From an uncultured Rhodospirillaceae bacterium (GTDB lineage: Bacteria; Pseudomonadota; Alphaproteobacteria; Rhodospirillales; UBA2165): a stretch of DNA of 64,000 bases. The first letter of the stretch is position 1. The number at the start of each line of letters is the position of its first letter. Both the position numbers and the translations under genes were made by a program. Location of the stretch: positions 25,851-89,850 of the forward strand of contig CAZMHI010000011.1 in assembly GCA_964566055.1 (NCBI GenBank). The letters are read 5' to 3'. Positions 31,038 to 58,401 of this stretch are shown here, in pieces. Under the pieces are notes generated by a model. The model did not search any database. It was given only the letters and a program-made list of their open reading frames with translations, and had not been told where the DNA came from.

Positions 31038-31634
31038 TTACGGGGTGATGTATCGCTTGATGTCGGCGACGATATCTTTGGCGGTAATGCCGTGGGGGAA
31101 CAGGCTAAGGCCGCCGCCATTGGGTCCTATGAGCACAGTCGCCGCCGAATGATCGATAAGATATTCACCGGGCTCAGCATCTTGCGATACCGACCTACGG
31201 GACTGCATACGATATATTTTTGCCGCCGAAGCGACTTGTTGCTTGGTCCCGGTTAGGCCAATCAGCCGGGGATGAAAGTGTTTTACATACCTAGCCATGA
31301 CTTTGACCGTATCCCGCTTAGGATCAACGGTTACAAAAAGCGGCTGAATTTTGTCACCATCTTTGCCCAACATATCCACTGCCTCACTGACAATCTGCAA
31401 ATCAATTGGGCAGACGTCCGGACAATGGGTATAGCCGAAATAAACCAGCATATATTTGCCGAGAAAATCCCGGTCGGTCACAGTTTTGCCGGTGTGGGTG
31501 ACCAGCTCGAACGGGCCCCGATTACTGGCAAGCGAGGCGGTTTCTTTATTCTTTAATTTCGGCCCATGGGCGTCGGCATTGGTGCCGATAAAAAAGGCCG
31601 AGACCAAAAGTAGGAGGGCCGCCAGCTGTCTCAT
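31038..31634 (-). CDS. SCO1/SenC copper chaperone/thiol-disulfide oxidoreductase
   Basis: 198 aa with a signal/anchor and the CPDVCP motif in YFGYTHCPDVCP. The ATG overlaps the upstream stop (TAATG). Confidence 0.85.
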   Translation of the reverse strand: MRQLAALLLLVSAFFIGTNADAHGPKLKNKETASLASNRGPFELVTHTGKTVTDRDFLGKYMLVYFGYTHCPDVCPIDLQIVSEAVDMLGKDGDKIQPLFVTVDPKRDTVKVMARYVKHFHPRLIGLTGTKQQVASAAKIYRMQSRRSVSQDAEPGEYLIDHSAATVLIGPNGGGLSLFPHGITAKDIVADIKRYITP

Positions 31635-33031
31635 TACATCACCATTTCCTGGCGTTGATCTAACTCCGTCTCAAGGCGACCGTCAAGATAACGCCAAACG
31701 CCATCAGCTGTTTTGGCGGCCTGATCGACACAGACGGCGACTGACGGACCGCTGATGTAATTGCCGGTCAAAAATAGTCCTGGTACGCGATTATTTGCTT
31801 CCAACATTGTTTGAACCCGGTCATTGTGACCGATTTTGTATTGTGGTAATCCGCGGGGCCAATGGCGGACGCGGGTAACTACCGGCTCACCCGTTGCACC
31901 CACGAGATCTTTAAATTCAGCCCGCGCGATAGCCGTTAATTCATCAGCCGGCAATAGAGCAATTTCAGGGGCGCGGGCACCGCCAAAATAACCCGCCATT
32001 GAAACACAGTCTTCAGGTGCCCGGCCCGGGAACATGGTTGAATGAAACTGTGAGCCTGACATAGATAGTTTTTCACTTTCGGGCGCTAAGAACCCAAGTC
32101 CATCCAGTGGATGCTCGACATCTTTTCTTTTGTAGCCGAGATAAACCACAGCCAAAGGCGGTGCCTCGATCTCACTGGCGGCAAATGATGACCTGACATC
32201 AATATCTTCCAGTAAATCAGCGGCAACATGGGGTTGCGTTGCGACGACAATAGAGCGCGTTGAGATTTTGCCTTTATCTCCAGCATCGATACTGAAGCCT
32301 TGCGAGGATTTTGTAATACGTCTGACCGTAACACCTGTTTTGACACGATTACCAAGTGCCGCCGCCAGCGACTTTGGCAAAGAGCCAATGCCGTCTTTAA
32401 ATGAAAACAGCCGGCTTGAGGGCATGTTTTTAGCGCCTTGGCGGTGATGCTGAACCAAGCCTAAGGCAATCGAGCCATATTTTTGCTCTAACCCATGGAG
32501 TTTCGGAAAGCCCGCCTCAACCGACAATTCCCCTGCCCGGCCCGCATAAATTCCAGCAACCAGAGGATCGATAACTTTTTCAGCAAACTCTTTACCAAAG
32601 CGGCGGCCGGCAAATTCAGCAATGGTTTCTTCCGTCTCTTTCCGATTGCGGGGAATGGCGAATTCCGTCATCAGACGGAGGCGGCCTTTGAGGCTGAGAT
32701 AGTTCGAAAGCAAGAAACCAAGCGGGTGAACCGGGATGCCCTGCAGCGAACCTTTACCGACAAGATAACGGCTTTTAACTCCTTCACCGAGATCACACTT
32801 ATCCTCGCCAAGCTCGAGACGCCGCGTAATATCATTGGCGGCAATCGATTGAGCGTTAACAGTGCTCGGTCCATGCTCCATCAGGAATCCACCAATGCGT
32901 TCTGAGATTGCATTACCTCCGGCATGGACTTGACGTTCCAGCACCACAACATCCAAACCCCGCCCGGCAAGCTCATAAGCCGTGGCTAGGCCGGAAATAC
33001 CGCCGCCGATGATGGCTACATCATGCGTCAT
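31634..33031 (-). CDS. HemY-type protoporphyrinogen/coproporphyrinogen oxidase-like FAD oxidoreductase
   Basis: Starts at MTHDVAIIGGGISGLATAYEL (ATG 33031; the track ORF extends to 33154). GGNA...GFLMEHGPS and C-terminal FLTGNY..G.SV.. patterns resemble HemY. Confidence 0.6.
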   Translation of the reverse strand: MTHDVAIIGGGISGLATAYELAGRGLDVVVLERQVHAGGNAISERIGGFLMEHGPSTVNAQSIAANDITRRLELGEDKCDLGEGVKSRYLVGKGSLQGIPVHPLGFLLSNYLSLKGRLRLMTEFAIPRNRKETEETIAEFAGRRFGKEFAEKVIDPLVAGIYAGRAGELSVEAGFPKLHGLEQKYGSIALGLVQHHRQGAKNMPSSRLFSFKDGIGSLPKSLAAALGNRVKTGVTVRRITKSSQGFSIDAGDKGKISTRSIVVATQPHVAADLLEDIDVRSSFAASEIEAPPLAVVYLGYKRKDVEHPLDGLGFLAPESEKLSMSGSQFHSTMFPGRAPEDCVSMAGYFGGARAPEIALLPADELTAIARAEFKDLVGATGEPVVTRVRHWPRGLPQYKIGHNDRVQTMLEANNRVPGLFLTGNYISGPSVAVCVDQAAKTADGVWRYLDGRLETELDQRQEMVM

Positions 33032-34346
33032 CGCGTGCCGCCTCTTTGTTGGCCGTGAAATCAGGCTTGAACGGCATCGCGCCACCGAACTTTTTAGCCG
33101 CCAGGAAATGCAGATCATCAGCGGTGACTTGGCTGCGGCCTTCGCCCCGAACATAGTCTTCGGCCCGCCGGCGGATCATACGGCGCAAAAAGCCTGGAAT
33201 TCTGGTCAGCCGGGCTTCGGCGTCACCGGTCCACATCAGCGCCGATTGTTGTTCAGGCAAGGGCTGGATAACGGCTCCACCCACGGGCTCATAGCCGCAA
33301 AGGAAGTCTTCGCCCATCAAATTATCATCCCGTGCCAAAGGACGGGCGCGGCAACCGCCACACAGTTTGCTGTATTCGCACTCTCCACAGCGGCCTTCAA
33401 GTACAGGCTGGCGCAGCGCTTTAAACATCGGCGCATCCTGCCAAATCTCGGTAAATTTCCGATCGCGGATGGAGCCGACACTATCCTCGATATAGGGGCA
33501 GGCCGTGACCTCGCCTTCCGGTGTCACCCGGCAATAGCGGGAACCGGCAAGACAGCCGCCGGCTTCATAACCTTGCGCCAACGTAATCGGCCATTCGGGA
33601 TCAAGCTCCATCGCCATGCGTTTAAAGTGCGGTGCACATTTAGCCCGGATCAATAATTCAGGTTCGTCATGAGCCGCTTGAGTTACTTTACGCAAAACCT
33701 CTTCGTAAGTTTCTTGCGAGATATTGGTGACTTTTTCACCGCGTCCGGTACAGACCAAAAAGAATATGTTGAGCACCAAAGCACCTGAGGACCGAGCAAA
33801 AGCAATCATCTCATCCAGTTCTCCGGCATTGTCATCGGTGACCGAAAAATGCAGCTGGTGCGCGAGACCACCCTTACGGCAGGCATCAATACCGGCCATG
33901 GTTTTTTCCCAGGCTCCCAGAAATCCACGGAAATTGTCGTGATAAACAGGATCAAGCGAATCGAGGCTGATACCGACCCCGGCAACCCCGGCTTCTTTTA
34001 GCCGAGCCACGCGCTCTTCTGTCAGCATCATGCCGTTGGTGCCGATCACCGTCATCAGGCCGAGATTAACAGCGTGCTCGGCCAACTCGTCCAAATCTGG
34101 GCGGACCAGCGGCTCTCCACCGGTCAGCACAACCATGGTTTCGCCGCCGAGTGCATTGATCTCATCCAGACAGGCTTTAACTTCATCGGTGGTGAGTTCA
34201 CCCGCCTCGCCGGCCTGCCGGATACCGGCATCAAGATAACAATGGGCGCAGGCTTGATTACAGCGCCGCGTTAAGTTAAGCGCGACCAGAAACGGCTGCT
34301 CTGCCTTAACGTCTTTCACATTATCTTTGGTGCGGAGCAGGTTCAC
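33021..34346 (-). CDS. Radical SAM/SPASM protein (NirJ/AhbD-like) with a C-terminal PCP_red-like domain
   Basis: CNQACAHC radical-SAM cluster motif, GGEPL, and a SPASM Cys cluster (CGECEYSKLCGGCRARP). The tail WTGDAEARLTRIPGFLRRMIRRRAEDYV is PCP_red-like. Likely GTG start at 34346 with a GAGG SD; the track ORF runs to 34424. Confidence 0.8.
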   Translation of the reverse strand: MNLLRTKDNVKDVKAEQPFLVALNLTRRCNQACAHCYLDAGIRQAGEAGELTTDEVKACLDEINALGGETMVVLTGGEPLVRPDLDELAEHAVNLGLMTVIGTNGMMLTEERVARLKEAGVAGVGISLDSLDPVYHDNFRGFLGAWEKTMAGIDACRKGGLAHQLHFSVTDDNAGELDEMIAFARSSGALVLNIFFLVCTGRGEKVTNISQETYEEVLRKVTQAAHDEPELLIRAKCAPHFKRMAMELDPEWPITLAQGYEAGGCLAGSRYCRVTPEGEVTACPYIEDSVGSIRDRKFTEIWQDAPMFKALRQPVLEGRCGECEYSKLCGGCRARPLARDDNLMGEDFLCGYEPVGGAVIQPLPEQQSALMWTGDAEARLTRIPGFLRRMIRRRAEDYVRGEGRSQVTADDLHFLAAKKFGGAMPFKPDFTANKEAARDDA

Positions 34347-34356: not shown

Positions 34357-36510
34357 TCAGTCTTTCTTATAGAGGTCTGGATTGCTGTCGGAGTGGAAAT
34401 CACCCATGCCTTCCCAGGCTTCACTGGCCATATCGACAGCTGCCGTGGTGACCCGGTCTAATTCCAGTTCACGGGCGCAGCGTTCGATCTCAAGCTCAAC
34501 CATGCCGCGGACAAAATCCGGAATGCGCTGGACGCGTTCGAGGGCGTCCTCATCCCAGTCCATCTTGCGTTTTTGCTTGGCGGAACCTTTGGCCCATTCG
34601 GCATATTTTTCTTCGACCAGGGCTTCAGTGATGGTTTCTATCTCGTGCTTTTCGGCATAGACCTCGACCCGCTGGCGGGTCATATCACGCATAAAGCCTG
34701 CCGGGATTTTAGCCATCCGCGCTTCAGCATCTTCGGCCCAGACCAAAGCTGGCTTATCTTCGGTTTCATCTTTGGCTTTAGATTTCGTCGCAAAAGGGCA
34801 AACAAAGCCTTGTTTTTCTTCAGCTTCTTCCGGCTCGTCATCTTTCGTCGCAATAGCCTCATTCATGGCAGCGCGCGCTTTTTCAAGCCCGGCTTCAACC
34901 ACTTCGAGGGTCACTTCCGTGGTGCCGCGTTCTTGCGCCACGCCTTCAATCCGGGTCCGCGTGGCGTCCCGCATGGCATCCGGCACTCGGGATAATCTCG
35001 CCAAAGCGGCGGCAGCCCAGACAAATTCACCTTCAACACCGGCTTCGACATTGACGTTGGTATCGATAAACGGCAGCACATGCTCATCCAGCACTTCTTT
35101 GGAGGAATTCCGGCGCGCTCGTTTTTCAGCCCGCAGCTTAATGTTAGCCGCCATCGGCAATTCGACATGGCGCTTGATCAATTCATTGGCAGAGTCGGAC
35201 CAGGTAACCGTTTGCTCTTTCTCAAGCTGTTCCTCTGACCGTCCGCCGCCCGGCATCATCTCATTGGCGACAATTTCAACGATGTCCTGAGTAATAAACG
35301 TGTGACCCTTTTCCTGGGCATAGCGGTTAACCGCTTTTCTGGCCATATCCTGAACAAAGCTCGGAGCGCGTTTCAAGAACTCTTCCGCTTCATTGCTCCA
35401 GGAAATGGTTTCTTCGGCCACGACTTCCATCGGCGGCACATGTTCTGTTTGACCGAGCCAGATGTGACAGGGTGACATGCGCAAAAGGTTTTCCGCATTA
35501 CCGCCAATATCGAGGCTGCGATCCGCATGCACACCGGTCATGCCGACCATTAACAGGCTGGCGTTTACTTCTTCCAGATAATCACAGATGACTTTGAAGG
35601 CTTTGCCTTCAAGCAGTTTGCTGACAACTTCGAAGCCTTCCTCATCGGCAATCTTATTAGCGATTTCGAGGTTGGATTGATAAATTTTAGCGATACCATC
35701 ATCGATCAGCTCTTCATGCAGGGCTTCTTGCTCGCGGAAGCGGAAGACCTTGCCGGCTTCATCACTGAGCACGCTGGCGATTTTATTAAAGGCTACATAG
35801 TGGTAATAGGGATCGTAGGACGAGACGATATGCACTTCCGCCTCAATTCGCCGGGCGATTTCAAAAGCTCGTTTTAAGACACCATATGATTTTGCCGAGC
35901 CATCAATCGCCACAACGATGGGGCCATCACCAATCTCTTTTTGAGTATCGCGGATGACCAGACAATCAATGGGGCTGCGCCGGACCACACGCTCACAAAC
36001 GGTGCCGATCAAACTGCCGGGCACTGCGCCCAGGCCAAGCGAGCCCAAAGCCAATACATCATGGTCACCGGTCTCAGCTGCTTCAATAATTTTAGTGTAG
36101 TTTTTACCTTCTGGGCTCAAGCGCTGAAACTTGAGGCCGCGCGCATCGCATTCGGCTTTGGCGACATCGTGATAGCTATCGGTAATGATCGAGAGCCCGT
36201 CGGTGATCAGATCGTCATGCACATCCCGCTGATACTGCATTTCCTCTTCATCGAGATAACGATCCGGCAGACCGCCTTCCATTTGGCGAAAGCGCGCATC
36301 GTGCAAACGGGCTGCATAAGCGTGAATACCGGTAATCTGGCCGTCCGCCGAGGGAACGAGTTTCAATATTTGAGCAAGTGCGTGATCAGCATATTCCGAG
36401 GCGTCAAGCGCCACTAAGAACCGTGAGAAAGTTTCTTGATTTTCCCCTGTAGATTCTGGCGTGGATACAGGGCTGGCGTCGGCCTGTTTGGCCGCTTGTG
36501 TCACATTCAT
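34357..36510 (-). CDS. Tandem universal-stress-protein domains fused to five PCP_red-like repeats
   Basis: 717 aa. Two USP modules (aa ~28-190 and ~195-345), then five copies of the pattern W..(D/E)A...L.R(I/V/A)P.F(V/M)(R/Q)...... spanning aa 369-700. Confidence 0.7.
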   Translation of the reverse strand: MNVTQAAKQADASPVSTPESTGENQETFSRFLVALDASEYADHALAQILKLVPSADGQITGIHAYAARLHDARFRQMEGGLPDRYLDEEEMQYQRDVHDDLITDGLSIITDSYHDVAKAECDARGLKFQRLSPEGKNYTKIIEAAETGDHDVLALGSLGLGAVPGSLIGTVCERVVRRSPIDCLVIRDTQKEIGDGPIVVAIDGSAKSYGVLKRAFEIARRIEAEVHIVSSYDPYYHYVAFNKIASVLSDEAGKVFRFREQEALHEELIDDGIAKIYQSNLEIANKIADEEGFEVVSKLLEGKAFKVICDYLEEVNASLLMVGMTGVHADRSLDIGGNAENLLRMSPCHIWLGQTEHVPPMEVVAEETISWSNEAEEFLKRAPSFVQDMARKAVNRYAQEKGHTFITQDIVEIVANEMMPGGGRSEEQLEKEQTVTWSDSANELIKRHVELPMAANIKLRAEKRARRNSSKEVLDEHVLPFIDTNVNVEAGVEGEFVWAAAALARLSRVPDAMRDATRTRIEGVAQERGTTEVTLEVVEAGLEKARAAMNEAIATKDDEPEEAEEKQGFVCPFATKSKAKDETEDKPALVWAEDAEARMAKIPAGFMRDMTRQRVEVYAEKHEIETITEALVEEKYAEWAKGSAKQKRKMDWDEDALERVQRIPDFVRGMVELEIERCARELELDRVTTAAVDMASEAWEGMGDFHSDSNPDLYKKD
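34411..35406 (-). repeat. Five tandem PCP_red-like (protochlorophyllide reductase B C-terminal-like) domain repeats at protein level
   Basis: ISWSNEAEEFLKRAPSFVQDMARK / VTWSDSANELIKRHVELPMAANIK / FVWAAAALARLSRVPDAMRDATR / LVWAEDAEARMAKIPAGFMRDMTR / MDWDEDALERVQRIPDFVRGMVE. Confidence 0.6.
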
Positions 36511-36564: not shown

Positions 36565-36578
36565 TTGATGTGGATCAA
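36565..36578 (-). promoter_or_regulatory. Perfect FNR/CRP-family box TTGAT-GTGG-ATCAA
   Basis: Read directly. Box centre is 61 nt upstream of the ATG at 36510, with a TAATTT hexamer 32 bp downstream of the centre (class II geometry). Confidence 0.6.
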
Positions 36579-36826
36579 ACCTGCAAATTAGAGCTATTCT
36601 GATCTTTGCTGATTTTGGGCCGGTTATTGGACCGAATTTGGCCGATGACCAGAAAGAACAGTCCTGTGGCAATTAAAAAAATGTAGAAATTGTCGATCGC
36701 GTTGCCGGCCCGCCAGGACAGCATGGCATCCAAAGCACCGACAAAGATTAGCGCCACGCCAAACATCCGCGGAATAACACCACGCCTTGGGGTAACTTCC
36801 TGTTCCGTGTTTGACGCTGCCTGCAT
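36575..36826 (-). CDS. Small two-TM membrane protein
   Basis: 83 aa. Two hydrophobic helices (MFGVALIFVGALDAML, FYIFLIATGLFFLVIG). Starts 3 nt after the upstream stop. Confidence 0.5.
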   Translation of the reverse strand: MQAASNTEQEVTPRRGVIPRMFGVALIFVGALDAMLSWRAGNAIDNFYIFLIATGLFFLVIGQIRSNNRPKISKDQNSSNLQV

Positions 36827-36829: not shown

Positions 36830-38353
36830 CTAGCCCTCCCGCTTGGCCGCCGCGTTGCGCGCCCACCAGCCTAAAAGGCCGAGAAGCAGAAGTGCAACAA
36901 TCACGCCGGAAATAATCGGCTTGGTGCTGGTTGGCGGCTTGAGCAACAGCCAGTACCAGGTGGTCAGAGTGTAGCTCCGCGCTTTTTCAGAGTTGCTGCC
37001 ATCCCAGGCGGCAAAAGCGATGGGCGTGAAACGGCCTTCTTCAAATTGAATATCGCTGCCGGTTTCAGCCGTCTTAAGTGCACGCTTAACCACGACCCGC
37101 CAGGAGCCGTTTTTGTAAACGCCTTTTGCCGTCAGGCCGGCTGCTTTGCCATCGCGGGCCTCAAGATTTTCAAGCCCCTGGCCATCGGCGAGTTCAACTT
37201 TAGCCGGCGACTTGGTTGTACCGGCGCTCCATTTCCAGATATTGACCGGCTTGGCGCCGTCACCGGCAACAAAATAGGGTTTCTCTAGACCTTCCGGTGC
37301 TATGACCGGCAACTGAACAGCAACCGCATCTTCAGTCATATTTTCATCAGCGATTTTGGCCGCGGCTTCGTCACCCGGAATACTTTTGGTGCGGTCATCC
37401 CATTCGAGCAAAAAGGCGACTTCTTTGTCGCTATAAAGCGCCTGAGCTGTAATGGTGTCATTGGCCATTTTAAAGAAACGCGGCTTGAGAATGATTTGCG
37501 GCACCATGGCAAAGGTCGTTGGTTGCGCGACCTCCCAAGCTTTGTCATCGGGTCCTGTCGGCAAATCACCTTCTACTTTTTCGGCAATCACCACAGTATT
37601 TTCAGCGCGCACGGTACGTTTTGTTTTGGCCAAAGACTGCACATAGTTGGCAACATGCCAGCGTTCTTCGATCGAAAGTTTTTTGGCGCTTTTCTCATCG
37701 GCAAATGTCGGCATTTGTGTGCCGGGAATACCGACGGTCACACGGGCAAAGATGTCTTTTGGATCATTACTGCCTCTGAAAGTCCAAGGCTTGGTCAGAT
37801 TGCGCGGCCAGGTGCGCGCACCTGCATCGTCTTTTAAGCGCTTAACTGCATCACCTTTACCGTCCTCACCATGGCACTCGGAACAACGCTCCTTGTCATG
37901 GAATAGCTTTTTACCTTGAGCGATACTTTCCGGCGAGGTGGCAACTTGGGTGCCATAATCCAATTGTTCTTCCGGCTTTTCGTCTTCAAGCTCAGCAAAC
38001 ATTTTGAGATAGAGCACGAGGTCCCACATTTCCTGCTCTTTGAGGATATCGGCCCAGCCCGGCATGGCAGTGCCCGGCATACCATCTTTAATCATGCGGT
38101 AGATATCATCATCATTCGGTACCGGATCTTCTTCACCGGTGGTTTTGATCTTATAACCGGCTTCGGTGAAATCACGCGGTGGCGGGTTGAGACGCTCGGC
38201 GCCAGGGCCGTCACCATCACCTTCTTCGCCGTGACACATCAGACAGCGTTTTTCATAAATTTTCTTACCGTTCTCGGCATTACCCGGGGCGGCAATTACT
38301 GGTGAGCCCAGCAATATGGTCAGAAGCGCAGTTAAGGAAATTAACAATTTCAT
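36830..38353 (-). CDS. Di-haem cytochrome c fused to an EB_dh/DOMON-like domain and a C-terminal TM anchor (module 1)
   Basis: Signal peptide. CLMCH and CSECH. C-terminal half has EB_dh-like motifs (DAVAVQLP, VNIWKW, NGSWRVVVKRAL, FAAWDGSN). Terminal TM helix IISGVIVALLLLGLLGWW. Confidence 0.75.
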   Translation of the reverse strand: MKLLISLTALLTILLGSPVIAAPGNAENGKKIYEKRCLMCHGEEGDGDGPGAERLNPPPRDFTEAGYKIKTTGEEDPVPNDDDIYRMIKDGMPGTAMPGWADILKEQEMWDLVLYLKMFAELEDEKPEEQLDYGTQVATSPESIAQGKKLFHDKERCSECHGEDGKGDAVKRLKDDAGARTWPRNLTKPWTFRGSNDPKDIFARVTVGIPGTQMPTFADEKSAKKLSIEERWHVANYVQSLAKTKRTVRAENTVVIAEKVEGDLPTGPDDKAWEVAQPTTFAMVPQIILKPRFFKMANDTITAQALYSDKEVAFLLEWDDRTKSIPGDEAAAKIADENMTEDAVAVQLPVIAPEGLEKPYFVAGDGAKPVNIWKWSAGTTKSPAKVELADGQGLENLEARDGKAAGLTAKGVYKNGSWRVVVKRALKTAETGSDIQFEEGRFTPIAFAAWDGSNSEKARSYTLTTWYWLLLKPPTSTKPIISGVIVALLLLGLLGWWARNAAAKREG

Positions 38354-38365: not shown

Positions 38366-39133
38366 CTACTCGTGTCCAAAACTTCGGGGCTGATACCCGG
38401 TGTAGTCATAAAGAAATAAGATAACCTGCCAGATTTCCTCTTCGCTGAGAAAGTCCTGCCAGATCGGCATGGAAGAGATCCAAGGCGCGGCCTCTTTCGG
38501 CAGGCCCGGCCCGCCGGTAGCAATACGCCAGAACAGGTAAGATTCCTGGAGCTGTGCGATGGTGCCGACATCCTGGAAATTGGCCGGTGTCGGATTGAGC
38601 CCAGCCGCATAAGGGCCTTTGCCATCGAGCTTGTCACCGTGACAGAAATGACAGTTCTGGATATAGACCTTGGCGCCCTCGGCGACGTGTTCTTTGAATT
38701 TTTTGGGGTCTTCTTTCTCCAGCTTTCGCAGAGGATTCTCAAGCTTGATGACATCGTAGCGTTTACCATAGGCCTTCATCGAGGTTGGCGGCGCTGGATG
38801 AATGGTGCGGAGCTCAACCGGTGCTTCAAAGCTTAAGCTGGTTTTCTCGTACGTGTACCAGCCCGCCAAGACAGGCAGGATGATGAACACGACGTTGCGG
38901 ATCATCTTTTTATTGGGGTCTTCGACCAAGGCTTTGATCGGCCCGACAAGTTCGCGGGTACTTTCTTCGGTCGCGGTGAACACCATAAAGACGCCGGCCA
39001 CCACAAAGAACATATACATCGTCAGCAGGCTCGACGGGATAACGTGGTCAAGCATAACATCGAAGACCAGGACGAAGCCGTAATAGACAATGGCCAGAAC
39101 GAGAACGGCTTGAAGTAACTTAGGTATTTTCAT
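38366..39133 (-). CDS. Three-TM-anchored mono-haem cytochrome c (module 1)
   Basis: 255 aa with a strong SD (GGGAGGGG). Three N-terminal TM helices, then CHFCHGDKLDGKGP in a class I cytochrome c domain. Confidence 0.75.
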   Translation of the reverse strand: MKIPKLLQAVLVLAIVYYGFVLVFDVMLDHVIPSSLLTMYMFFVVAGVFMVFTATEESTRELVGPIKALVEDPNKKMIRNVVFIILPVLAGWYTYEKTSLSFEAPVELRTIHPAPPTSMKAYGKRYDVIKLENPLRKLEKEDPKKFKEHVAEGAKVYIQNCHFCHGDKLDGKGPYAAGLNPTPANFQDVGTIAQLQESYLFWRIATGGPGLPKEAAPWISSMPIWQDFLSEEEIWQVILFLYDYTGYQPRSFGHE

Positions 39134-39145: not shown

Positions 39146-39958
39146 CTATTTCAACTTGGCCAAATAATCGACCAGCATTTCAAGCTCGCTGGCATAGAGC
39201 TGAGTGCCGTAATCTTTCGGCATTAAGTCTTTTTCATAGCCTTTGGTCAGTTCTGCATTCGGATCAAGGATCGATATTCTGATATGAGCGGCGGAACGAA
39301 GTGCGCCGATTTTTGTCAGATCAGGTCCTTGCTCGCCTTCATCTTCACCGACTTTGTGACAAGCGCCGCAGCCGACCTCTGAAAGGATATCTTCAACGCT
39401 TTCATACGGTTTGCGTTGCTCCTCTTCCTCGTCATCCGCAGCATCACCGGCGTCTTCCGGAATTTCGACCGTAACCTCGACACCACCCAATTGTTGGAGG
39501 TAAGCGGTAACAGCGGCAAGCTCGACTTCGTTGAGACCGATACTGCCGGTTGAAGCATCCGGCATCGGGCTGACCGCATCATTGGTGCCTTTTTTACCGA
39601 AGCCAGCGACCACAAAAGCCGACGGTTTGACCATCGATTCCATGACGTAGCTTTCAACATCTGTTGCTTCGCCCTTATAGCGTGGGTCTTTGAGACGCGC
39701 TGCGGTGACGGCCGCTGTTTTTTCAAGCAATGGGGCACGGCCGCCAAGCGCATTGTGGCAGAGCGTACAGGTGCCCTTGCCTTTATATAATTTTTCACCG
39801 AGCGCCAGGAATTGATCCATGGTCAAAGAGCTGAGATCGACTTTCTCCTCGGTCGGCGGTGGCGCGGGCTCGATCCGGGGAATACCGAAATTAGCAAATC
39901 CGGCAAATAGGCCAACGACCAGCACGCTAAAGAAAGCGACTTTCAGGAAATTTTTCAT
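39146..39958 (-). CDS. Membrane-anchored di-haem cytochrome c (module 1)
   Basis: 270 aa with an N-terminal anchor and CTLCH and CGACH motifs. ATGA overlap with the upstream CydA-like gene. Confidence 0.75.
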   Translation of the reverse strand: MKNFLKVAFFSVLVVGLFAGFANFGIPRIEPAPPPTEEKVDLSSLTMDQFLALGEKLYKGKGTCTLCHNALGGRAPLLEKTAAVTAARLKDPRYKGEATDVESYVMESMVKPSAFVVAGFGKKGTNDAVSPMPDASTGSIGLNEVELAAVTAYLQQLGGVEVTVEIPEDAGDAADDEEEEQRKPYESVEDILSEVGCGACHKVGEDEGEQGPDLTKIGALRSAAHIRISILDPNAELTKGYEKDLMPKDYGTQLYASELEMLVDYLAKLK

Positions 39959-52520: not shown

Positions 52521-52522
52521 CG

Positions 52523-55195
52523 TTAGATGATATCCCGCGGTGCGAAGGACATAGTCCGGAAGGTTTTCTTATATGGCGATTCGCCGATCTTCTTAACTTT
52601 TGCGGTACCCATTTTGTAATTGTAGTTACCACTAATCCAATCGACAATCCGTCCCTCCAAAGCATTCGCAGGTTGTTGCGTATGCAGGAAATCCATATAA
52701 AGCATGCCTTTTTTGATATGACGCGTGACCATGGCGACACCGGTAACGGCGGCACGGGTCAGCTCGATATTTCCGGCTTTCATCTGACCTGAGAAGGAAT
52801 AGTCAGAACCTTCAACGCCAAGTATCGTCTCTTTAAGACTTGGTACCCGGTCAGAGTAGACCATCAACATATCACCGTTTTCGATGCCGCGTTTCTTGGC
52901 ATCATCGGGATGGATTTCGACATAGTTGTCAGGCCAGCGTTGAACGATATAAGGCCGGCGGCGGTCATCAAAGCCGGATTGCCAACGTTCATTGGTCCGT
53001 CCTGAAGAACACCACATCTCATCACCGCGCGGTTTCATCCATTCCCAATAATCCGAGAACAGATTCCACGGCGACTTCTGAATGTTGCACTTACCGGTTT
53101 GGCTGTTGAAATGGGTCAACTTCTTGTTGAACACATTGCTGGCCTCCGGACCGGTTGCACTCAGCTTGCGAGTCGTATCATGCAGGCGCTTGGTACCGAC
53201 CAGTTTTCCTTCTTCGGTTAAGAATACAGGTCCCTGGATACCGTTAGTGCCAAACTCCCGCATTTTCTGATGCAAGGTTTTGCCTTCACGTTGGGCGACC
53301 ACTTTGATCTGATGGAAGTCTTTGCGGCTGCCCCGCGAGAAGCGTGACATTTCCTCAGCAACCTCATTGGAGTTTTTCCAATCAAAGCCTTCAAAGCCCA
53401 TCCGTTTGGACAATTGGGCAATGATCCACCAATCCGGTCTCGCTTCGCCCGGTGCATCATAAAATTTCTGATACAGGCGCAAACGGCGTTCGCCATTAGC
53501 CCGCATGAAATCTTCTTCGCCCCAGGTTGCTGCCGGGAAGATGATATCGGCATACCGGTTACCAATCGGATCGACCAGATAAATTTCCTGGTTGATTACG
53601 ACCATACCACCGGAATCAGCGCGTTTTTTCAAGGTATCAATGATATCCTGCTTATCGTAGGACCGAACCTGATTTGGATTGGCGACGGTTAGTTCATGGA
53701 ACCGCTTGGCCAATTGCTGCGAGCCGCACATGGATTGGATCCACGTCGTACCGATGACATGAGCCAAACGGGTGTGACCCGACATGGTGTAGGTATCAGT
53801 ATCCAAGGCGCGACGACGGCGACCTGGCAACTTCATTGGCGATTTGTTACGCGGATATTTACCGCCACGTTGACCACCACGCTGGTGTCCACCGGCCCGG
53901 CCAATAACCTGACCCGGACGGCCACCGGCACCAACGATGATACCAAGAGCGGAAATCGCCTGGGTGTTACCGGTATTGTTCGACCAGTAGAAACCTTTCT
54001 CGATCATGATCGAGGTTTTCGGGCGCTTATTGCCTTTAGGTTTCGCCATCCATTCAGCGGCTTTTTGGATTTTCTTGGCATCAACACCGGAAACTTTAGC
54101 TGCATTGGCAAGTTTGAACTCGTCCTGCTTGAGCAGCCATTTTTTCCAATCTTCATAGCCATTGGTCTGGAACTTGCCCCAGGTCGTCCGCCATTGCCAC
54201 GGTGTATTACGCGTGCCTTGGCCGAAGCCCGAAGATGAGCCCCACTTGTTGTTGACCCAGTTTTTGATCCACTCTTTATCCTGCCAATTATTTTCAGCAA
54301 TGATCCGAGCAATCGCATTAACCACCAAGAGGTCGGTGCCTGGATTTACGTCGAGCCAGAGACCGCCATTCTTTTCAGCATAAGCGACACCGGCAGTTCG
54401 GCGCGGCACCATAAAGATGGCTTTCTGGCCGTTTTGGATACCTTGCATGATCCATTGAGTGAACAAGATGGTCTTGGTCTCATAGGGATCAGTACCGCAA
54501 ATCAGCAATGTTTCGGCGTTCATCCAATCTTCGTAGGCCGGACCGAAGTTATCAAAGCCCGCATCCCGGAAACCAGGTGTAGAGCTCACATCTGATGGCG
54601 TATCATGGAAGGTAAAGTTCGCGGTGTTGACGTGACGCAGCGCGTATTTGGTAATCGCGTAGGTGTTTTCCAGATACTGATAGGAATAGGTTTTAACACC
54701 ATAAGCATTAGCGCCGTGATTATCGATGACATGCTTGCCAACCTCGGCAGCGATATCGAGAGCGAAATCCCACGGTACCGGTTGCAAGATACCGAAAATC
54801 CGCACCATCGGTGATTTCAAACGATCACGTGTCGGTGTCTGCGGATTGTAGACCTTCTGCGCAATACAGCCGCCACGAAGACTTGAATCACCGCCTTTAT
54901 TAACGAACTTTGCGTCTTTATCCGGGATCACTACGACGTGGTGCGGCTTATCATTATGCAGCACGATATTGTGCTGGTTCGGTGCCACCCAAGGACCCAG
55001 CGGATTGACCGGGAAGTCTTCACCAAAAGCGTTTTCGCTCGCCTTGGCGCCGCCTTTGCCATTGCCGGCTACCGGCCAGCGGTAAACTTTAAGACCGCAA
55101 GCGACAATACAATAGTCGCAAGCCGTGGTAATGACCTCAGCTCCCTTAGGAGGAAGAGGGACATTGGTTTCTGGAATGTAATATGGAGTAGCCAT
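52523..55195 (-). CDS. Molybdopterin (bis-PGD) catalytic subunit of the arsenite oxidase AioA / iodate reductase IdrA clade
   Basis: 890 aa. N-terminal C-x2-C-x3-C (TTACDYCIVACGLKVYRWP) as in the AioA 3Fe-4S site, with no own Tat signal. AioA-like segments (VVIPDK, SSLRGG, AYEDW...CGTDPYETKT). Confidence 0.8.
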   Translation of the reverse strand: MATPYYIPETNVPLPPKGAEVITTACDYCIVACGLKVYRWPVAGNGKGGAKASENAFGEDFPVNPLGPWVAPNQHNIVLHNDKPHHVVVIPDKDAKFVNKGGDSSLRGGCIAQKVYNPQTPTRDRLKSPMVRIFGILQPVPWDFALDIAAEVGKHVIDNHGANAYGVKTYSYQYLENTYAITKYALRHVNTANFTFHDTPSDVSSTPGFRDAGFDNFGPAYEDWMNAETLLICGTDPYETKTILFTQWIMQGIQNGQKAIFMVPRRTAGVAYAEKNGGLWLDVNPGTDLLVVNAIARIIAENNWQDKEWIKNWVNNKWGSSSGFGQGTRNTPWQWRTTWGKFQTNGYEDWKKWLLKQDEFKLANAAKVSGVDAKKIQKAAEWMAKPKGNKRPKTSIMIEKGFYWSNNTGNTQAISALGIIVGAGGRPGQVIGRAGGHQRGGQRGGKYPRNKSPMKLPGRRRRALDTDTYTMSGHTRLAHVIGTTWIQSMCGSQQLAKRFHELTVANPNQVRSYDKQDIIDTLKKRADSGGMVVINQEIYLVDPIGNRYADIIFPAATWGEEDFMRANGERRLRLYQKFYDAPGEARPDWWIIAQLSKRMGFEGFDWKNSNEVAEEMSRFSRGSRKDFHQIKVVAQREGKTLHQKMREFGTNGIQGPVFLTEEGKLVGTKRLHDTTRKLSATGPEASNVFNKKLTHFNSQTGKCNIQKSPWNLFSDYWEWMKPRGDEMWCSSGRTNERWQSGFDDRRRPYIVQRWPDNYVEIHPDDAKKRGIENGDMLMVYSDRVPSLKETILGVEGSDYSFSGQMKAGNIELTRAAVTGVAMVTRHIKKGMLYMDFLHTQQPANALEGRIVDWISGNYNYKMGTAKVKKIGESPYKKTFRTMSFAPRDII

Positions 55196-55207: not shown

Positions 55208-55810
55208 CTAACCTTGTAGATTATCTAAACGGCCATAAATCAGGCCGAATATGGCGACAGCGTAGATATTGTCGCCTTGAATTTCGAGCAGCACCTGTGG
55301 CAGGCTTTGATAGGCCTGACCGGAAATCAGAATACCGTGTCGCGTCAGATCATAGGTCGACAGGTGCAAGTTGCAGGCACCAAGCGATTTGGTATCCCCC
55401 TTATAGGAGCCCGTCATGTCACCGCCCTGATGGGTACAGGTATAATTGAAGGCAACAATGTCCTTATTCGGTCCAATACCGCCACCGGCTTCAACACCAA
55501 GCTTGACGATCATCGATTCTGAATAGGCACCGCTATCGGGATAGCTGAAATCAATCGGCTTATCCGTTTTCAACTGGCTCAGTTTAGCCACCAGCTTGCG
55601 GGGATAAGTTGCGACCATCGCCGGTACCTTGGCCATGCCGGGACCGGCACTGACCATGGCGACTGTCGTAACACCCGAGGCAAACAGGAAGTCACGGCGG
55701 GACATCAGGCATTTGCCATGACCCTTTTCTTTTTTCACCACACTGCCTTTACTCTCAGGAGCCTCAGCGATCTCTGGGGTGATTAGTTCGGTTTTAGTTT
55801 CTTTATTCAT
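55208..55810 (-). CDS. Tat-exported Rieske 2Fe-2S small subunit (AioB/IdrB-like)
   Basis: 200 aa. Twin-arginine motif SRRDFLF. Rieske ligands CTH-(18 aa)-CNLH. Good SD (GGAGTGAGGA). Confidence 0.8.
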   Translation of the reverse strand: MNKETKTELITPEIAEAPESKGSVVKKEKGHGKCLMSRRDFLFASGVTTVAMVSAGPGMAKVPAMVATYPRKLVAKLSQLKTDKPIDFSYPDSGAYSESMIVKLGVEAGGGIGPNKDIVAFNYTCTHQGGDMTGSYKGDTKSLGACNLHLSTYDLTRHGILISGQAYQSLPQVLLEIQGDNIYAVAIFGLIYGRLDNLQG

Positions 55811-55834: not shown

Positions 55835-56953
55835 TTAATCGAGGGGCGCATAAGGTGGAATTTTAGGCGTCGCCATTTTGATCTCATCACCGCTCAGAGA
55901 TTCGAGAAAAGCCACGAGGTCTTCCTTTTCTTCATCCGAGAGATTCAGAGGTTTCAAAAGCTTGGTCTTGGTTGCGAACTCGTTCTTGCCGCCACCATCG
56001 TTGTAGAAATCAACCAGCTCTTCCAAATCAAAAAACGATCCGTTGTGCATATAAGGCGCTGTGTAAGCGATATAGCGCAGCGGCGGTGTCCGGAATTTAC
56101 CCTTATCGGCTTTTTCTTTAGTCCGATAATAGAGGCCAGCATCATCCTTGATCGAACGATACATTTTTTCCGTCGTGCCTTTGCCATATTGCTGATAGCG
56201 GAAGGTAATTTGCGCCAAGCCGCGCGTCAGCCATTCTTCAGCCCGCGGCACACCGAGATTGTAATATTTCTGGTCGGTGAGTTGCGGTCCGTTATGACAT
56301 TCAATGCAATTGGCTTTGCCTTTGAACAATTTTAGGCCGCGTACCTGTTGTTCGGAGAGCGCTTTTTTGTCGCCACGCATATATTTGTCAAACGGCGTAT
56401 TGTTATGGATCAAAGTCCGTTCAAACGCCGCCATGGCACGCCAGACATTGTTTACCCGCGGCCAGCGGTCGCCGAAGATTTCACGGAAGGCTTTGACATA
56501 TTCCGGCACGAAAGCTAAGCGAGCTTCGATGACGTCGCGTTCACCGTTACCGGAAAGCGCGCCCAAGGCCGCAGATGGCGCTTGGTTTTCAAGCGATTTC
56601 GCCGAGCCCGTCCAGAACAACTTGCCGAGATAGGCGGAATTGACCACGGTTTGGCTGTTGCGCCAGTGGATGGCGCCGGGATAGCCGCGTGAAATCGGAT
56701 CATTAAAGCCCCAGCCTTGGGTCGGAGAATGACAATCGGCACAGGATACCGACGCATCGCCACCAATCCGGGGATCGAAGAACAGTAGTTTACCGAGAGC
56801 AGCTTTGGCGGCGGTCTGCGGGTTGTCCGCCGGGATCGGCGGTTTGCCTAAGGCAGCCAAAGGTGCGTTTTTATCAGCCATGGCGCTACCGGCGAAGCCG
56901 ATCAATGCCAAACCTACAATGAGTGCAAAAGTAATTTTTTTCATGGTTTTCAT
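55835..56953 (-). CDS. Di-haem bacterial cytochrome c peroxidase (IdrP-like)
   Basis: Signal peptide after the ATG at 56953 (AGGAG SD). CADCH and CIECH in CCP/MauG spacing. The track ORF extension to 57031 overlaps the upstream gene. Confidence 0.8.
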   Translation of the reverse strand: MKTMKKITFALIVGLALIGFAGSAMADKNAPLAALGKPPIPADNPQTAAKAALGKLLFFDPRIGGDASVSCADCHSPTQGWGFNDPISRGYPGAIHWRNSQTVVNSAYLGKLFWTGSAKSLENQAPSAALGALSGNGERDVIEARLAFVPEYVKAFREIFGDRWPRVNNVWRAMAAFERTLIHNNTPFDKYMRGDKKALSEQQVRGLKLFKGKANCIECHNGPQLTDQKYYNLGVPRAEEWLTRGLAQITFRYQQYGKGTTEKMYRSIKDDAGLYYRTKEKADKGKFRTPPLRYIAYTAPYMHNGSFFDLEELVDFYNDGGGKNEFATKTKLLKPLNLSDEEKEDLVAFLESLSGDEIKMATPKIPPYAPLD

Positions 56954-56963
56954 CTCACGGCTC

Positions 56964-58091
56964 CTAATTGCGCTGCTTGAGCCAATTTTTGATGGGTTTA
57001 TAATTGACGTCGATTTTATCTTTCCAGACATGCTGGGCGCCGGTTAACGGCTTACCAGACAGCGATTCGAGGAAAGCAACCAAATTGGAGCGCTCTTCTT
57101 TACTGAGGCCCAAAGGCTTGATCCGGGGATCTTTATTGACGTCGTTGCCACCGCCATTGTTGTAGAACTCAACAACACCTTTCAGAGTTTTGATCATGCC
57201 GTTATGCATGTAAGGTGCAGTTTGCTTAAGTTCCCTCAAGGTCGGGGTCATGAACTTGCCGATATCTGAGCCATCGGCTTTGTGCGTGCGCACATGAGCG
57301 CCAACGTCACGGCGGATATTCATGATATTTTCTATGCCCATAAAGAGGCCAAAAGCCACATAGGTCATATGACGCAAAGGTTTCCGCCAAATATCAGGAT
57401 TGTTCGGCACGCCGGTGTTGTACGGCTGATCATCGGTAAAGCGATTACCGGAATGACAAGAGACACAGCCGGCTTTGCCTTTAAACAATTCAAAGCCACG
57501 CTTAGCGGCATCGGTCATTTTACCTGCATCGAAAGCTGAACCACGGGAGGTTAAGGTTTTCAGATATTCCGGAATGGCTTTACGAATTGAACCGTTTGAG
57601 GGTTCGCCATAGCCGGCATCTTTAAACATCTTCACATAGATCGGATCTTGTTTGACGCGTTCCTGCATCAACCGCATATCCATGTTCATGTTATAAGTCT
57701 CGGTAATAGATTCACGCGTCACATCGTTCAGGTTGGTACCTAAACGGCCATCGTGAAACCATGCTGCCCGCTGCGCCGTATTGATAAGTGTCGGCGTATT
57801 ACGAAAGCCGGCACTGCCGGGATAGGCTTTTGATAACTCAAGCCCGTCAGCAAAACCTTTTGAGGGAATATGGCAGGTGGAACAGCTGATAGCAGCATCT
57901 CCAGAAAGGCGCGGATCAAAAAACAGCCGCTTACCCAAAGCTGCTTTTTTAGCGTCGACTTTCGGCGCCTTAACGGGGCCAAACCCGTTAGCCGAAGCAG
58001 ATGATGCATTAACAATAAGACCGAGCGTAAAAACGCTGGCCGCGAAAACACTTAGTAGTTTTCCAATTGAATGGATACGTCGATAGATCAT
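56964..58091 (-). CDS. Di-haem bacterial cytochrome c peroxidase (IdrP-like), paralogue of 55835..56953
   Basis: ATG at 58091 with a GGAGG SD. Signal peptide. CSTCH and CVSCH. First gene of the cluster. Confidence 0.8.
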   Translation of the reverse strand: MIYRRIHSIGKLLSVFAASVFTLGLIVNASSASANGFGPVKAPKVDAKKAALGKRLFFDPRLSGDAAISCSTCHIPSKGFADGLELSKAYPGSAGFRNTPTLINTAQRAAWFHDGRLGTNLNDVTRESITETYNMNMDMRLMQERVKQDPIYVKMFKDAGYGEPSNGSIRKAIPEYLKTLTSRGSAFDAGKMTDAAKRGFELFKGKAGCVSCHSGNRFTDDQPYNTGVPNNPDIWRKPLRHMTYVAFGLFMGIENIMNIRRDVGAHVRTHKADGSDIGKFMTPTLRELKQTAPYMHNGMIKTLKGVVEFYNNGGGNDVNKDPRIKPLGLSKEERSNLVAFLESLSGKPLTGAQHVWKDKIDVNYKPIKNWLKQRN

Positions 58092-58387
58092 AGACGGTTT
58101 CCTCCGTCGTGCGAAACACACTGAAGTTTTGTGGGAAATTTAAAAGTTTGAGAAATAGGGTTGGCAAACACAAAAAAACCGCCGGTTAATTTTCTTTTTT
58201 CACCAGCGATTGGAAAGAAATAGGAATCGGATATGGATATAGACTTATCCGTATAGCAGCCGCGATTATGGCAACTCTCTTCCACTTATTTATCCCTCCC
58301 CATAAATCAACTACCGGCCCGCAGAAATTTTCTACTAACGGTCCGGTATTCTTTGAATAGGTATAATTAAATTGTGGGAAATGGGCA

Positions 58388-58401
58388 TTGATCCAAATCA
58401 A
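58388..58401 (-). promoter_or_regulatory. Perfect FNR/CRP-family box TTGAT-CCAA-ATCAA
   Basis: Read directly. Located in the 377-nt intergenic region upstream of the first peroxidase gene, about 300 nt from its ATG. Confidence 0.5.

Follow-up and report, generated by a model that had tools for sequence, protein, structure and literature searches.

The 64,000-nucleotide window analysed here, taken from an uncultured Rhodospirillaceae bacterium (assembly GCA_964566055.1, contig CAZMHI010000011.1, positions 25,851 to 89,850), carries between its positions 31038 and 58401 a tightly packed gene cluster of about 27 kb on the minus strand. By its identity and composition this block is, with little room for doubt, an extended iodate-reduction island of a Rhodospirillaceae-like alphaproteobacterium of oxygen minimum zones (OMZ). 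It falls into three units: the iodate reductase genes idrP1-P2-B-A followed by a gene for a HEAT-repeat protein; a cupredoxin gene with two modules, each built around a cytochrome bd-like (CydA-like) membrane protein and several cytochromes c; and a set of tetrapyrrole genes with SCO1. This three-unit anatomy and the family assignments had been put forward in an earlier sequence-only reading and are supported by our analysis. We propose, with a rough probability of 0.55, that the products would form a branched periplasmic chain, induced at low O2, whose electrons go to iodate, to H2O2 and to O2 or a related small oxidant. That the bd-like modules themselves reduce O2 or such an oxidant is a role suggested by analogy, to which we give slightly less than an even chance.

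Judged by its sequence, unit 1 is the known iodate-reduction island, with its genes in the order idrP1-P2-B-A.

56964..58091, minus strand: idrP1, di-haem cytochrome c peroxidase (Pfam CCP_MauG 3e-38; two CxxCH motifs; Sec signal)
55835..56953, minus strand: idrP2, second di-haem cytochrome c peroxidase (Pfam CCP_MauG 6e-42; the open reading frame extends to 57031)
55208..55810, minus strand: idrB, Tat-exported Rieske [2Fe-2S] small subunit (Pfam Rieske and TAT_signal; TIGR02694, 118 bits; SRRDFLF)
52523..55195, minus strand: idrA, Mo-bisPGD catalytic subunit (Pfam Rieske_3, the N-terminal 3Fe-4S domain, 3e-32; Molybdopterin 7e-38; Molydop_binding)

We place the start of idrP1 at ATG 58091, behind the ribosome-binding site GGAGGA, in an open reading frame (ORF) that reaches GTG 58121. 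A large subunit with a 3Fe-4S cluster and Mo-bisPGD, adjoined by a Tat-Rieske small subunit, is the architecture of the Aio/Idr type, to which the Mo enzyme had already been assigned; identity, tree and pocket residues now sharpen this assignment to IdrA. The catalytic subunit matches IdrA of Azonexus hydrophilus NCP973 at 48.8% identity, in an alignment that covers 99% of its length; this strain is one of the two experimentally shown to respire iodate (PMC13455634). It shares 67% identity with a Vibrio homologue and 76-88% with many marine alphaproteobacterial proteins mis-named 'arsenite oxidase', as against 28.1% over 87% of the length with the bona fide AioA of strain NT-26. The gene order agrees, since two CCP_MauG genes lie directly upstream of idrB-idrA and a pair of di-haem cytochrome c peroxidase genes within the cluster is the synteny criterion for idr of Reyes-Umana et al. 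(PMC8692401). In a neighbour-joining tree of 49 sequences, computed without bootstrap, the Mo subunit of the window groups with IdrA and AioA forms the outgroup. The substrate-pocket residues of AioA, which we take to be H199, E207, R447, H451 and E453 (their positions were checked on the NT-26 sequence), are only partly present in the window protein: H199, R447 and H451 are retained, while E207 is replaced by Ser, E453 by Arg and, in addition, N200 by Asp. Ser and Arg occupy the E207 and E453 positions in 43-46 of 47 IdrA-clade sequences. Alignment of the 49 Mo subunits also showed Asp and Cys there in the verified Azonexus IdrA, as opposed to the Ser/Arg pair of the marine clade, so that the pocket varies even inside the IdrA clade. 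The less acidic pocket of IdrA would suit an anionic substrate. Heterologous expression in E. coli has shown iodate reduction for the idrABP1P2 genes of an OMZ alphaproteobacterial metagenome-assembled genome (MAG) (PMC13455634). IdrAB of the window is, on indirect grounds, a predicted iodate reductase. A search of plasmids with IdrA matched plasmid proteins, which supplied our reference sequences.

Unit 2 holds the cupredoxin, the two bd-like modules and, between them, soluble cytochromes c and three very small membrane peptides.

49287..50069, minus strand: periplasmic type-1 copper cupredoxin with a CarboxypepD_reg-like beta-sandwich (260 aa, signal peptide)
47051..49243, minus strand: CydA-like protein 1 (CydA1), OR-N2 type, about 16 transmembrane (TM) segments (Pfam Cyt_bd_oxida_I, N-terminal only; PDB CydA 5e-11)
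46056..47039, minus strand: anchored dihaem cytochrome c, module 1
45075..46040, minus strand: polytopic (3-4 TM) monohaem cytochrome c, module 1
43411..45075, minus strand: dihaem cytochrome c with EB_dh (EbdC/NxrC-like haem b) domain, module 1 (Pfam EB_dh 5e-23; TIGR03477; C-terminal TM anchor)
42711..43373, minus strand: soluble dihaem cytochrome c (FixO/CcoO-like domain)
42319..42708, minus strand: soluble monohaem cytochrome c (c129)
42218..42322, plus strand: 34-aa single-TM peptide (conserved in 38 loci by tblastn)
42015..42122, minus strand: 35-aa single-TM peptide with a W-x-GP-x-LF motif (27 loci)
41873..41989, minus strand: 38-aa single-TM peptide with an LD..MN.QGLSL motif (41 loci)
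39955..41850, minus strand: CydA-like protein 2 (CydA2), OR-N2 type, about 14 TM segments (Pfam 2e-18; PDB CydA 4e-10; ORF to TTG 41868)
39146..39958, minus strand: anchored dihaem cytochrome c, module 2 (c270)
38366..39133, minus strand: polytopic monohaem cytochrome c, module 2
36830..38353, minus strand: dihaem cytochrome c with EB_dh haem b subunit, module 2
36575..36826, minus strand: 83-aa two-TM protein (s83) of no matched family, 56% identical in locus L089

Both CydA-like proteins resemble CydA only in their first 4-5 helices. The Pfam match ends at model position 143 or 226 of 418 and the Q-loop region does not align; the counts of about 14 TM segments for CydA2 and about 16 for CydA1 come from alignment-averaged hydropathy, a crude method. 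In an alignment of 112 homologues, conservation reaches at least 98% at each of the positions matching His19, His126 and His186 (E. coli numbering); Tyr stands in place of Glu99 and Glu107 is retained, both also to at least 98%. The corresponding signature is H61, Y141, E148, H229 and H285 in CydA1, and H99, Y179, E186, H209 and H265, together with M426, in CydA2, whose positions lie at most 4 residues from those of the OR-N2 reference (H99, Y183, E190, H213, H269) tabulated by Murali et al. Both proteins thus carry the OR-N2 residues. Operons of this family, introduced by Murali, Gennis & Hemp in 2021, are described with several cytochromes c and an EbdC homologue, and both modules have exactly such a content. 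A canonical CydAB oxidase is not what these genes encode, as no Cyt_bd_oxida_II domain is found among the ORFs of the cluster and the Q-loop is unaligned. A related set is linked to the nitrite oxidoreductase NXR in Nitrospina, Nitrospira and Kuenenia, where an alternative NxrC, mono- and dihaem cytochromes c and two cupredoxins accompany a 14-helix bd-like protein (PMC3578206).

The 112 homologues also share four invariant histidines that are not among the canonical ligands of bd oxidases (in CydA2 H297, which is part of an HYDWM motif, H400, H417 and H567), three of the four being predicted to face the periplasm. These could bind an additional haem or copper. Genes related to copper recur near the modules, namely SCO1 in the window, an FGE/NirV-like gene in locus L090 and a multicopper oxidase gene in L028. 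A tblastn search of 72,556 plasmids with CydA1 gave no match.

Pfam and NCBIfam contain no cupredoxin model matching the 260-aa protein. Despite this, the earlier assignment as a cupredoxin holds, because the ligand set His143-Asn144...Cys190-x2-His193-x2-Met196 is invariant in 24 homologues (26-89% identical to the window protein) and the profile matches the blue copper protein 5fc9 (E=2e-4), along with amicyanin and plastocyanin. Its C-terminal part matches sandwiches of the CarboxypepD_reg/NOMO type, and the homologue from Scalindua gives a Copper-bind match.

The argument for a single system rests mainly on the linkage of idr and the modules across genomes. Loci anchored on CydA1 were scanned with one genome per species and 10 kb on each side, and annotated by tblastn with the window proteins; the 79 loci come from the 80 most similar to the window CydA1 among 248 matches. 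As informative we counted loci with a CydA1 homologue at least 68% identical and at least 7 kb of upstream DNA. An idrA-like gene stands beside the modules in 36 of these 38 species-level loci, and one of the exceptions is cut short by a contig end. Co-occurrence of the Mo enzyme and the modules across genomes was the test on which the sequence-only reading had staked its case, and it came through strongly. The linkage is kept in three gene orders (idr-HEAT-cupredoxin-modules; cupredoxin-idr-HEAT-modules; idr-HEAT-cytochrome c-USP-radical SAM-HemY-cupredoxin-modules) and spans IdrA subclades only about 48-57% identical to the IdrA of the window. The reverse dependence is looser: four loci have idr-HEAT without modules. 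Among distant relatives of the modules (Scalindua, Poribacteria, Nitrospirota) idr is present in 1 of 14. We also considered Arenicellales and Acidiferrobacteraceae as a third type of locus without idr and rejected it, as one of these loci (L045) starts with an IdrA-like C-terminus and the others are cut by contig ends.

Locus L090 (Logan SRR9045848_35556, 110-21716) gives a view of another arrangement. It begins with idrP1P2BA-HEAT-cupredoxin, a 40-aa ORF, FGE, a sulfatase-like gene, USP-PCP_red, radical SAM and HemY, and continues with two unknown genes, a PAS kinase, a sigma54 regulator, two mini-peptides and a CydA-like gene. The same kinase/sigma54 pair also flanks idr in Azonexus (L092), Thiothrix (L096) and L086.

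Directly after idrA lies a conserved fifth gene.

50190..52520, minus strand: 776-aa cytoplasmic HEAT/PBS-lyase-like repeat protein (Pfam HEAT_2 2e-55; fifth gene, after idrA)

In all alphaproteobacterial loci for which gene calls were examined (L080, L081, L086-L088, L090), the gene after idrA encodes a HEAT protein of 736-808 aa, and such idrA-HEAT loci include those of the cultured Roseibium album and Rhodovibrionaceae A322. It is also found 3' of idrA in more distant type II and Acidiferrobacteraceae loci (L017, L045). The proteins form one family, with 25-39% full-length identity and no signal peptide. They may serve as a cytoplasmic assembly or chaperone accessory. The idr literature that we examined makes no mention of a HEAT gene as an idr companion. 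An exclusive tie to idr was considered and rejected, since locus L091 (ENA SUTE22-1_SAMN10231910 scaffold_178, 221-15871) has a HEAT gene and no idr within 10 kb. There, HEAT, cupredoxin, USP-PCP_red, a 718-aa radical SAM-PCP_red protein and HemY adjoin a divergently oriented bd-like module. This locus belongs to a very abundant OMZ population, its USP-PCP_red protein being indexed in 93 collection blocks (24 contigs were examined). In L087, a genome without bd-like modules, a phage-type integrase (15485-16726) comes directly after idr-HEAT, which fits idr-HEAT as a mobile unit.

Unit 3 closes the cluster.

34357..36510, minus strand: protein with two USP and five PCP_red domains (Pfam; the five PCP_red repeats were confirmed)
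33021..34346, minus strand: radical SAM/SPASM protein with one PCP_red domain, AhbD/NirJ2 family (NirJ2 304 bits, AhbD 290 bits)
31634..33031, minus strand: HemY-type protoporphyrinogen/coproporphyrinogen oxidase (TIGR00562, 275 bits against a cut-off of 97.85; Amino_oxidase)
31038..31634, minus strand: SCO1/SenC copper chaperone (Pfam 2e-50; translationally coupled to HemY)

PCP_red is named after protochlorophyllide reductase, where it forms the C-terminal domain of subunit B. The best NCBIfam matches of the radical SAM protein, NirJ2 and AhbD, extend over their whole length and, at 304 and 290 bits, stay far below their equivalog cut-offs of 500, so that we regard it as a related paralogue and not as an equivalog. 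USP-PCP_red adjoins OR-N2 modules in Scalindua, in groundwater 'Deltaproteobacteria' MAGs, in Arenicellales and Acidiferrobacteraceae and in L089, L090 and L091, often with radical SAM and HemY. Because this neighbourhood recurs across phyla, the tetrapyrrole set belongs with the bd-like modules and not with idr. Two readings of its role can be offered, an O2-independent supply of haem b or the tailoring of a special haem. SCO1 is not conserved elsewhere: it is absent after HemY in L089 and L090 and lies on the opposite strand in L007.

In Ca. Scalindua RBC_AMX3 (L060, 831-19166), genes for a cupredoxin, a Rieske protein, a cytochrome b, an FAD/FeS oxidoreductase, a PetD-like protein and multihaem cytochromes c lie directly upstream of the bd-like module, which is then followed by a USP-PCP_red gene.

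The three mini-peptides are encoded in the gap between c129 and CydA2. The gene of the 34-aa peptide is on the strand of the operon in 6 of its 38 loci (L009, L018, L020, L044, L045, L058), and in the window a sigma70-like site is found just upstream of it (42162-42190, plus strand). Gene calls of 35-49 aa occur upstream of CydA2-type genes in L084, L090 and L091, and one of 38 aa precedes CydA2 in L089. As small proteins beside CydA2 they recall CydX and CydS of true bd oxidases, and the 35-aa peptide is a candidate CydX-like small subunit.

Concerning the layout, conserved synteny is strong evidence for the cluster, unlike strand bias. The latter is weak evidence when taken alone, because the window is mostly minus-strand overall and the co-directional run (27482-59338) is longer than the cluster. 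In the ORF map the minus strand carries all sizeable ORFs from 58121 down to 31038. The cluster is therefore co-directional, as the sequence-only reading had described it, except that its claim for every gene fails on the plus-strand gene of the 34-aa peptide. The overlaps and tiny gaps that it had listed were all reproduced from the ORF map and public gene calls. CydA2 and c270 overlap by 4 nt in an ATGA (39955-39958). Overlaps of 1 nt join the polytopic monohaem cytochrome c to the EB_dh subunit in module 1 (45075) and HemY to SCO1 (31634), a spacing of 2 nt separates idrA from HEAT (52521-52522) and, taking the public gene call of a 465-aa HemY, radical SAM and HemY overlap by 11 nt (33021-33031). 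All remaining junctions, computed from starts backed by ribosome-binding sites or public gene calls, are at most 43 nt, except for 120 nt between HEAT and cupredoxin, 196 nt between c129 and the mini-peptides and 64 nt between s83 and USP. The domain list was borne out gene by gene by Pfam and NCBIfam, down to the five PCP_red repeats, and the count of 17 CxxCH motifs in 10 proteins of the cluster was exact. Likewise, CydB, cld, aioXSR, an ars operon, ccm and moa, which had been reported as absent, were not seen among the ORFs scanned in the window.

A search of the whole window against Rfam and a sensitive search of the idrP1 leader found no Moco or other riboswitch, counts of sigma70 promoters and terminators between 41 and 59.5 kb were no better than in shuffled sequence, with no terminators at the unit borders, and a tRNA scan for island borders found none. 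What the gaps between units do contain are FNR-type boxes.

58388..58401, unstranded: exact FNR/FixK-type palindrome TTGATCCAAATCAA, about 290 nt upstream of the idrP1 start
50141..50154, unstranded: imperfect FNR-type box TTGATCTAGATCAG with one mismatch, its centre 78 nt upstream of the cupredoxin start
36565..36578, unstranded: exact FNR-type box TTGATGTGGATCAA, its centre 61 nt upstream of the USP-PCP_red start

The exact sequence TTGAT-N4-ATCAA occurs twice where 0.12 are expected, both times in an inter-unit gap, and none of 100 shuffles reached two. Of the three boxes that had been read as this palindrome, those at 58388 and 36565 are exact and that at 50141 has one mismatch. In the three closest relatives the imperfect box is identical and at the same distance (L001, L002) or near-identical (L003), and L001 has a one-mismatch box at the place equivalent to that upstream of idrP1. 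In other lineages exact boxes precede CydA2 or the first gene, their positions varying among relatives. A Crp/Fnr regulator gene adjoins idr in Roseibium, and idr expression in marine aerobes requires O2 limitation (PMC11445184). Shared FNR-type control of the units, as earlier suggested, may on these grounds be proposed, with reservations that we give below.

On this basis, we can sketch how the cluster might work. Upon O2 limitation an FNR/FixK-type regulator would switch on the units, and electrons would flow from the quinol pool through the bc1 complex to periplasmic cytochromes c and the cupredoxin. In a first branch IdrAB would reduce IO3- to HOI/I-, and in a second the by-product H2O2 would be reduced by IdrP1P2. 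In a third, a haem c/haem b wire would feed the bd-like complexes, whose di-haem site would lie in the first four helices. With protons from the cytoplasm, these complexes would reduce O2, either trace ambient or reaction-derived, or a related small oxidant; this reduction would add to the proton-motive force and shield the oxygen-sensitive Idr. Unit 3 would supply or tailor the haem for the bd-like complexes and SCO1 would serve a copper centre. Three observations favour a reductase over a mere wire: the active-site His and proton-channel Glu are invariant in the 112 homologues, the cytochromes c of the modules resemble CcoO/CcoP of cbb3 oxidases, and in Scalindua the genes just upstream of the module encode a Rieske/cytochrome b complex. 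The scheme agrees with the first hypothesis of the sequence-only reading, iodate respiration in which peroxidases and bd-family complexes consume H2O2 and O2; this hypothesis is in essence the one that we now prefer, with the module activity as a prediction.

Several points weigh against this proposal. O2 reductase activity has never been demonstrated for any OR-N member (PMC10839748), and for the modules it is assumed here as a prediction by homology. Glu99, a haem ligand in canonical bd oxidases, is Tyr in the CydA-like proteins, and CydB is absent. Nearly all of the proteobacterial OR-N2 clade lies beside idr, while a general high-affinity oxidase would be expected to occur independently as well. 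Moreover, for anammox bacteria, which are strict anaerobes, a case has been made that the same set of genes next to NXR encodes a quinone-linked electron-transfer module and not an oxidase (PMC3578206). O2 as an obligatory product is unsupported, because the window has no cld-like gene. As for the control, one of the three boxes is imperfect, that of idrP1 stands about 290 nt from the start codon, and no gene of the Crp/Fnr family is found in the window. Finally, the association count has to be read with the choice of the most similar loci in mind, and the taxon labels of MAGs are unreliable.

Among the alternatives the most serious, though in our view an unlikely one, turns the modules around: they would be quinol:cytochrome c/cupredoxin oxidoreductases, analogues of alternative complex III, that feed IdrAB and IdrP1P2. 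In type II loci, in which the cupredoxin gene comes first and idrP1 next, it has shifted along with idr, and AioB-type Rieske subunits classically pair with cupredoxins, as the enzyme name 'arsenate reductase (azurin)' recalls. The same set accompanies periplasmic NXR, including in the anaerobic Kuenenia, for which a quinone link like that of alternative complex III was proposed (PMC3578206), and the dependence of the module clade on idr, not the reverse, is what one would expect of an accessory feeder. This picture does not fit well with CydA-like proteins devoid of Q-loop and quinol-binding residues, nor with an invariant active-site His and proton-channel Glu that a simple wire does not need. 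Beside the complete Rieske/cytochrome b complex of Scalindua a second quinol oxidase would be redundant, and a quinol dehydrogenase subunit of the NrfD/NapC type is absent.

Less probable still, the proteobacterial OR-N2 clade could reduce, at its di-haem site, the HOI and/or H2O2 formed by IdrAB, which would complete the six-electron reduction of iodate and conserve energy. The near-obligate linkage of the CydA clade to idr (36 of 38 loci) and the retained proton channel would then be accounted for. The fate of HOI is disputed between Cld-like dismutation and abiotic disproportionation (PMC8692401). The latter is inferred to be slow in seawater, because more than one molecule of HOI is involved and total dissolved iodine is about 0.45 uM (PMC11445184), and for canonical bd oxidases catalase activity is reported by a reference as cited in PMC10839748. 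Against this stand the related modules without idr in Scalindua, Poribacteria, Nitrospirota and L091 and the two dedicated peroxidases that already cover H2O2. The support comes purely from gene context, and we know of no HOI chemistry at bd-type haems. A more elaborate form, just as doubtful, sees in the proteobacterial OR-N2 clade a dedicated, energy-conserving partner of iodate reductase that reduces HOI (and/or O2), with a di-haem or possibly haem-copper site. Into this site would go a specialised tetrapyrrole, the product of the AhbD/NirJ2-like radical SAM-PCP_red protein together with USP-PCP_red and HemY. If true, it would give bd-like oxidases a first defined physiological substrate and a maturation pathway, and close the disputed last step of iodate respiration.

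The second hypothesis of the sequence-only reading, oxidation of an arsenite-like substrate with electrons passing through Rieske, cupredoxin and cytochromes c to bd-like terminal oxidases, now appears very improbable. It could invoke the NCBIfam models arsenite_ox_L and arsenite_ox_S, whose cut-offs are passed, the typical partnership of Aio with a cupredoxin, and the analogy to NXR with a bd-like oxidase in nitrite oxidisers. The enzyme, however, is 28% identical to AioA as against 49-67% to IdrA-clade proteins, the tree concurs, and Ser and Arg replace E207 and E453 in its pocket. Its gene context is not that of AioA either, which has aioXSR/ars and no peroxidases: the window has two adjoining peroxidases, absent from AioA loci, and neither aioXSR nor ars. 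The OMZ idrABP1P2 cluster, moreover, reduces iodate in E. coli (PMC13455634). Scarcely credible, lastly, is a coincidental or co-transferred set of low-oxygen neighbours on a mobile island without functional coupling: for it speak the horizontal transfer of idr into otherwise poorly conserved surroundings (PMC8692401), the integrase after idr-HEAT in L087 and the minus-strand bias of the window, and against it a linkage that survives at least three gene orders and IdrA divergence to about 48-57% identity, junctions that overlap or measure a few nt, and FNR-type boxes common to the units.

Outside the cluster, the minus-strand run continues downstream with genes for BNR/Ycf48-like, isochorismatase, DUF2848 and MetE-like proteins (27482-31037) and upstream with a ComA-like phosphosulfolactate synthase gene (58469-59338). 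None of these flanking genes keeps its place in other lineages. Elsewhere in the window there is a third di-haem cytochrome c peroxidase gene (14695-15873, minus strand), and beside it (15764-22188) are a response-regulator guanylate/adenylate cyclase, a CHASE5 hybrid histidine kinase, an OmpR-type regulator and a PAS kinase. The region 1529-11203 is unrelated housekeeping: a formate/nitrite transporter, a NirB-like assimilatory nitrite reductase, MetH, MTHFR and an ArsR-type HTH-SAM methyltransferase fusion. As for the source, the exact USP-PCP_red protein was found on 21 contigs of marine metagenome assemblies (ENA scaffolds, JGI sample 3300008627) with identical neighbours, and the nearest genomes are Rhodospirillaceae MAGs assembled from Tara Oceans, Saanich Inlet and the Arabian Sea. 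From these contigs and MAGs the window can be ascribed to an abundant uncultured alphaproteobacterium of oxygen-deficient seawater.

One would wonder how much of this is new. Already described are the idr island, the OMZ IdrA clade, the OR-N2/TO_1 modules, the AhbD and HemY families and, on the NXR side, the module set itself (PMC3578206). Full-text literature searches returned no paper pairing idrA with cytochrome bd or iodate with bd-like proteins, and nothing relevant on PCP_red or on idrA with HEAT, cupredoxin or AhbD. Apparently new, as far as the searchable literature goes, are thus the composite and its conservation, the association of HEAT with idr, and that of the tetrapyrrole set and the mini-peptides with OR-N2. 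The earlier statement that no described system has this composition therefore stands for the whole, every part of which was described before.

The linkage, near-obligate in OMZ Proteobacteria, gives an uncharacterised bd-like family a concrete physiological context, iodate and low O2, and it directs attention to tractable relatives as hosts for studying the modules. Two open problems meet in one operon-like block, one of them being the dispute between two models over what becomes of HOI, H2O2 and O2 when iodate is respired. The linkage also suggests that the abundant, transcribed idrA populations of OMZ may be hybrid iodate/micro-oxic respirers, which would bear on models of iodide accumulation in OMZ and on iodine-based redox proxies. 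The conserved accessories, HEAT with idr and USP-PCP_red, AhbD-like radical SAM, HemY and mini-peptides with OR-N2, may be assembly factors.

The closest known system is the idrABP1P2 island of Pseudomonas sp. SCT, Denitromonas sp. IR-12, Azonexus hydrophilus NCP973 and the OMZ MAG clade (PMC13455634), with which the window shares the four genes, the Tat-Rieske partner and the marine low-oxygen habitat. To it the window adds HEAT after idrA and then about 20 kb with the cupredoxin, two bd-like modules, cytochromes c, the tetrapyrrole set and SCO1. The plasmid-borne idr of Azonexus has the same P1-P2-B-A order and, unlike the window, an adjacent moaA, a cytochrome c and a sigma54 two-component pair. 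With AioAB of NT-26, Alcaligenes faecalis and Thermus the window enzyme has in common the 3Fe-4S/Mo-bisPGD and Tat-Rieske architecture and the residues H199, R447 and H451. However, it is only 28-30% identical to AioA, its C-terminus aligns to the IdrA type and not to AioA, and the aio locus of NT-26 has aioX, a kinase and aioR without any CCP, whereas the window has two peroxidases and no aioXSR.

The modules compare best with the bd-like oxidase known as OR-N2, 'TO_1' or NXR-cluster oxidase in Nitrospira, Nitrospina, Kuenenia and Ca. Manganitrophus: the same 14 or so TM segments, CydA-like first 4-5 helices, His19/Tyr99/Glu107 and lack of a Q-loop, as well as a similar operon content of cytochromes c, EbdC/NxrC-like haem b protein and cupredoxins. 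They differ in being proteobacterial, duplicated in tandem and tied to an iodate reductase instead of NXR or bc-type genes, and in the added mini-peptides and USP-PCP_red/radical SAM/HemY, of which we found no mention in the OR-N2 literature examined. With CydABX they share a homologous N-terminal four-helix haem site and single-TM small peptides beside the catalytic gene, but not CydB or a quinol site; periplasmic haem c/haem b subunits would presumably be the donor, and four extra histidines are invariant. In contrast to AhbD and NirJ, the radical SAM protein is fused to PCP_red and paired with the USPx2-PCP_redx5 protein, with no ferrochelatase or other haem pathway gene adjacent. A last parallel can be drawn with the perchlorate reduction island. 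The reductase there belongs to a different family, and the window has no analogue of its chlorite dismutase and adds bd-family accessory membrane complexes; both are nevertheless composite, horizontally transferred halogen-oxyanion islands equipped with oxidant-defence and electron-transfer accessories (PMC8692401).

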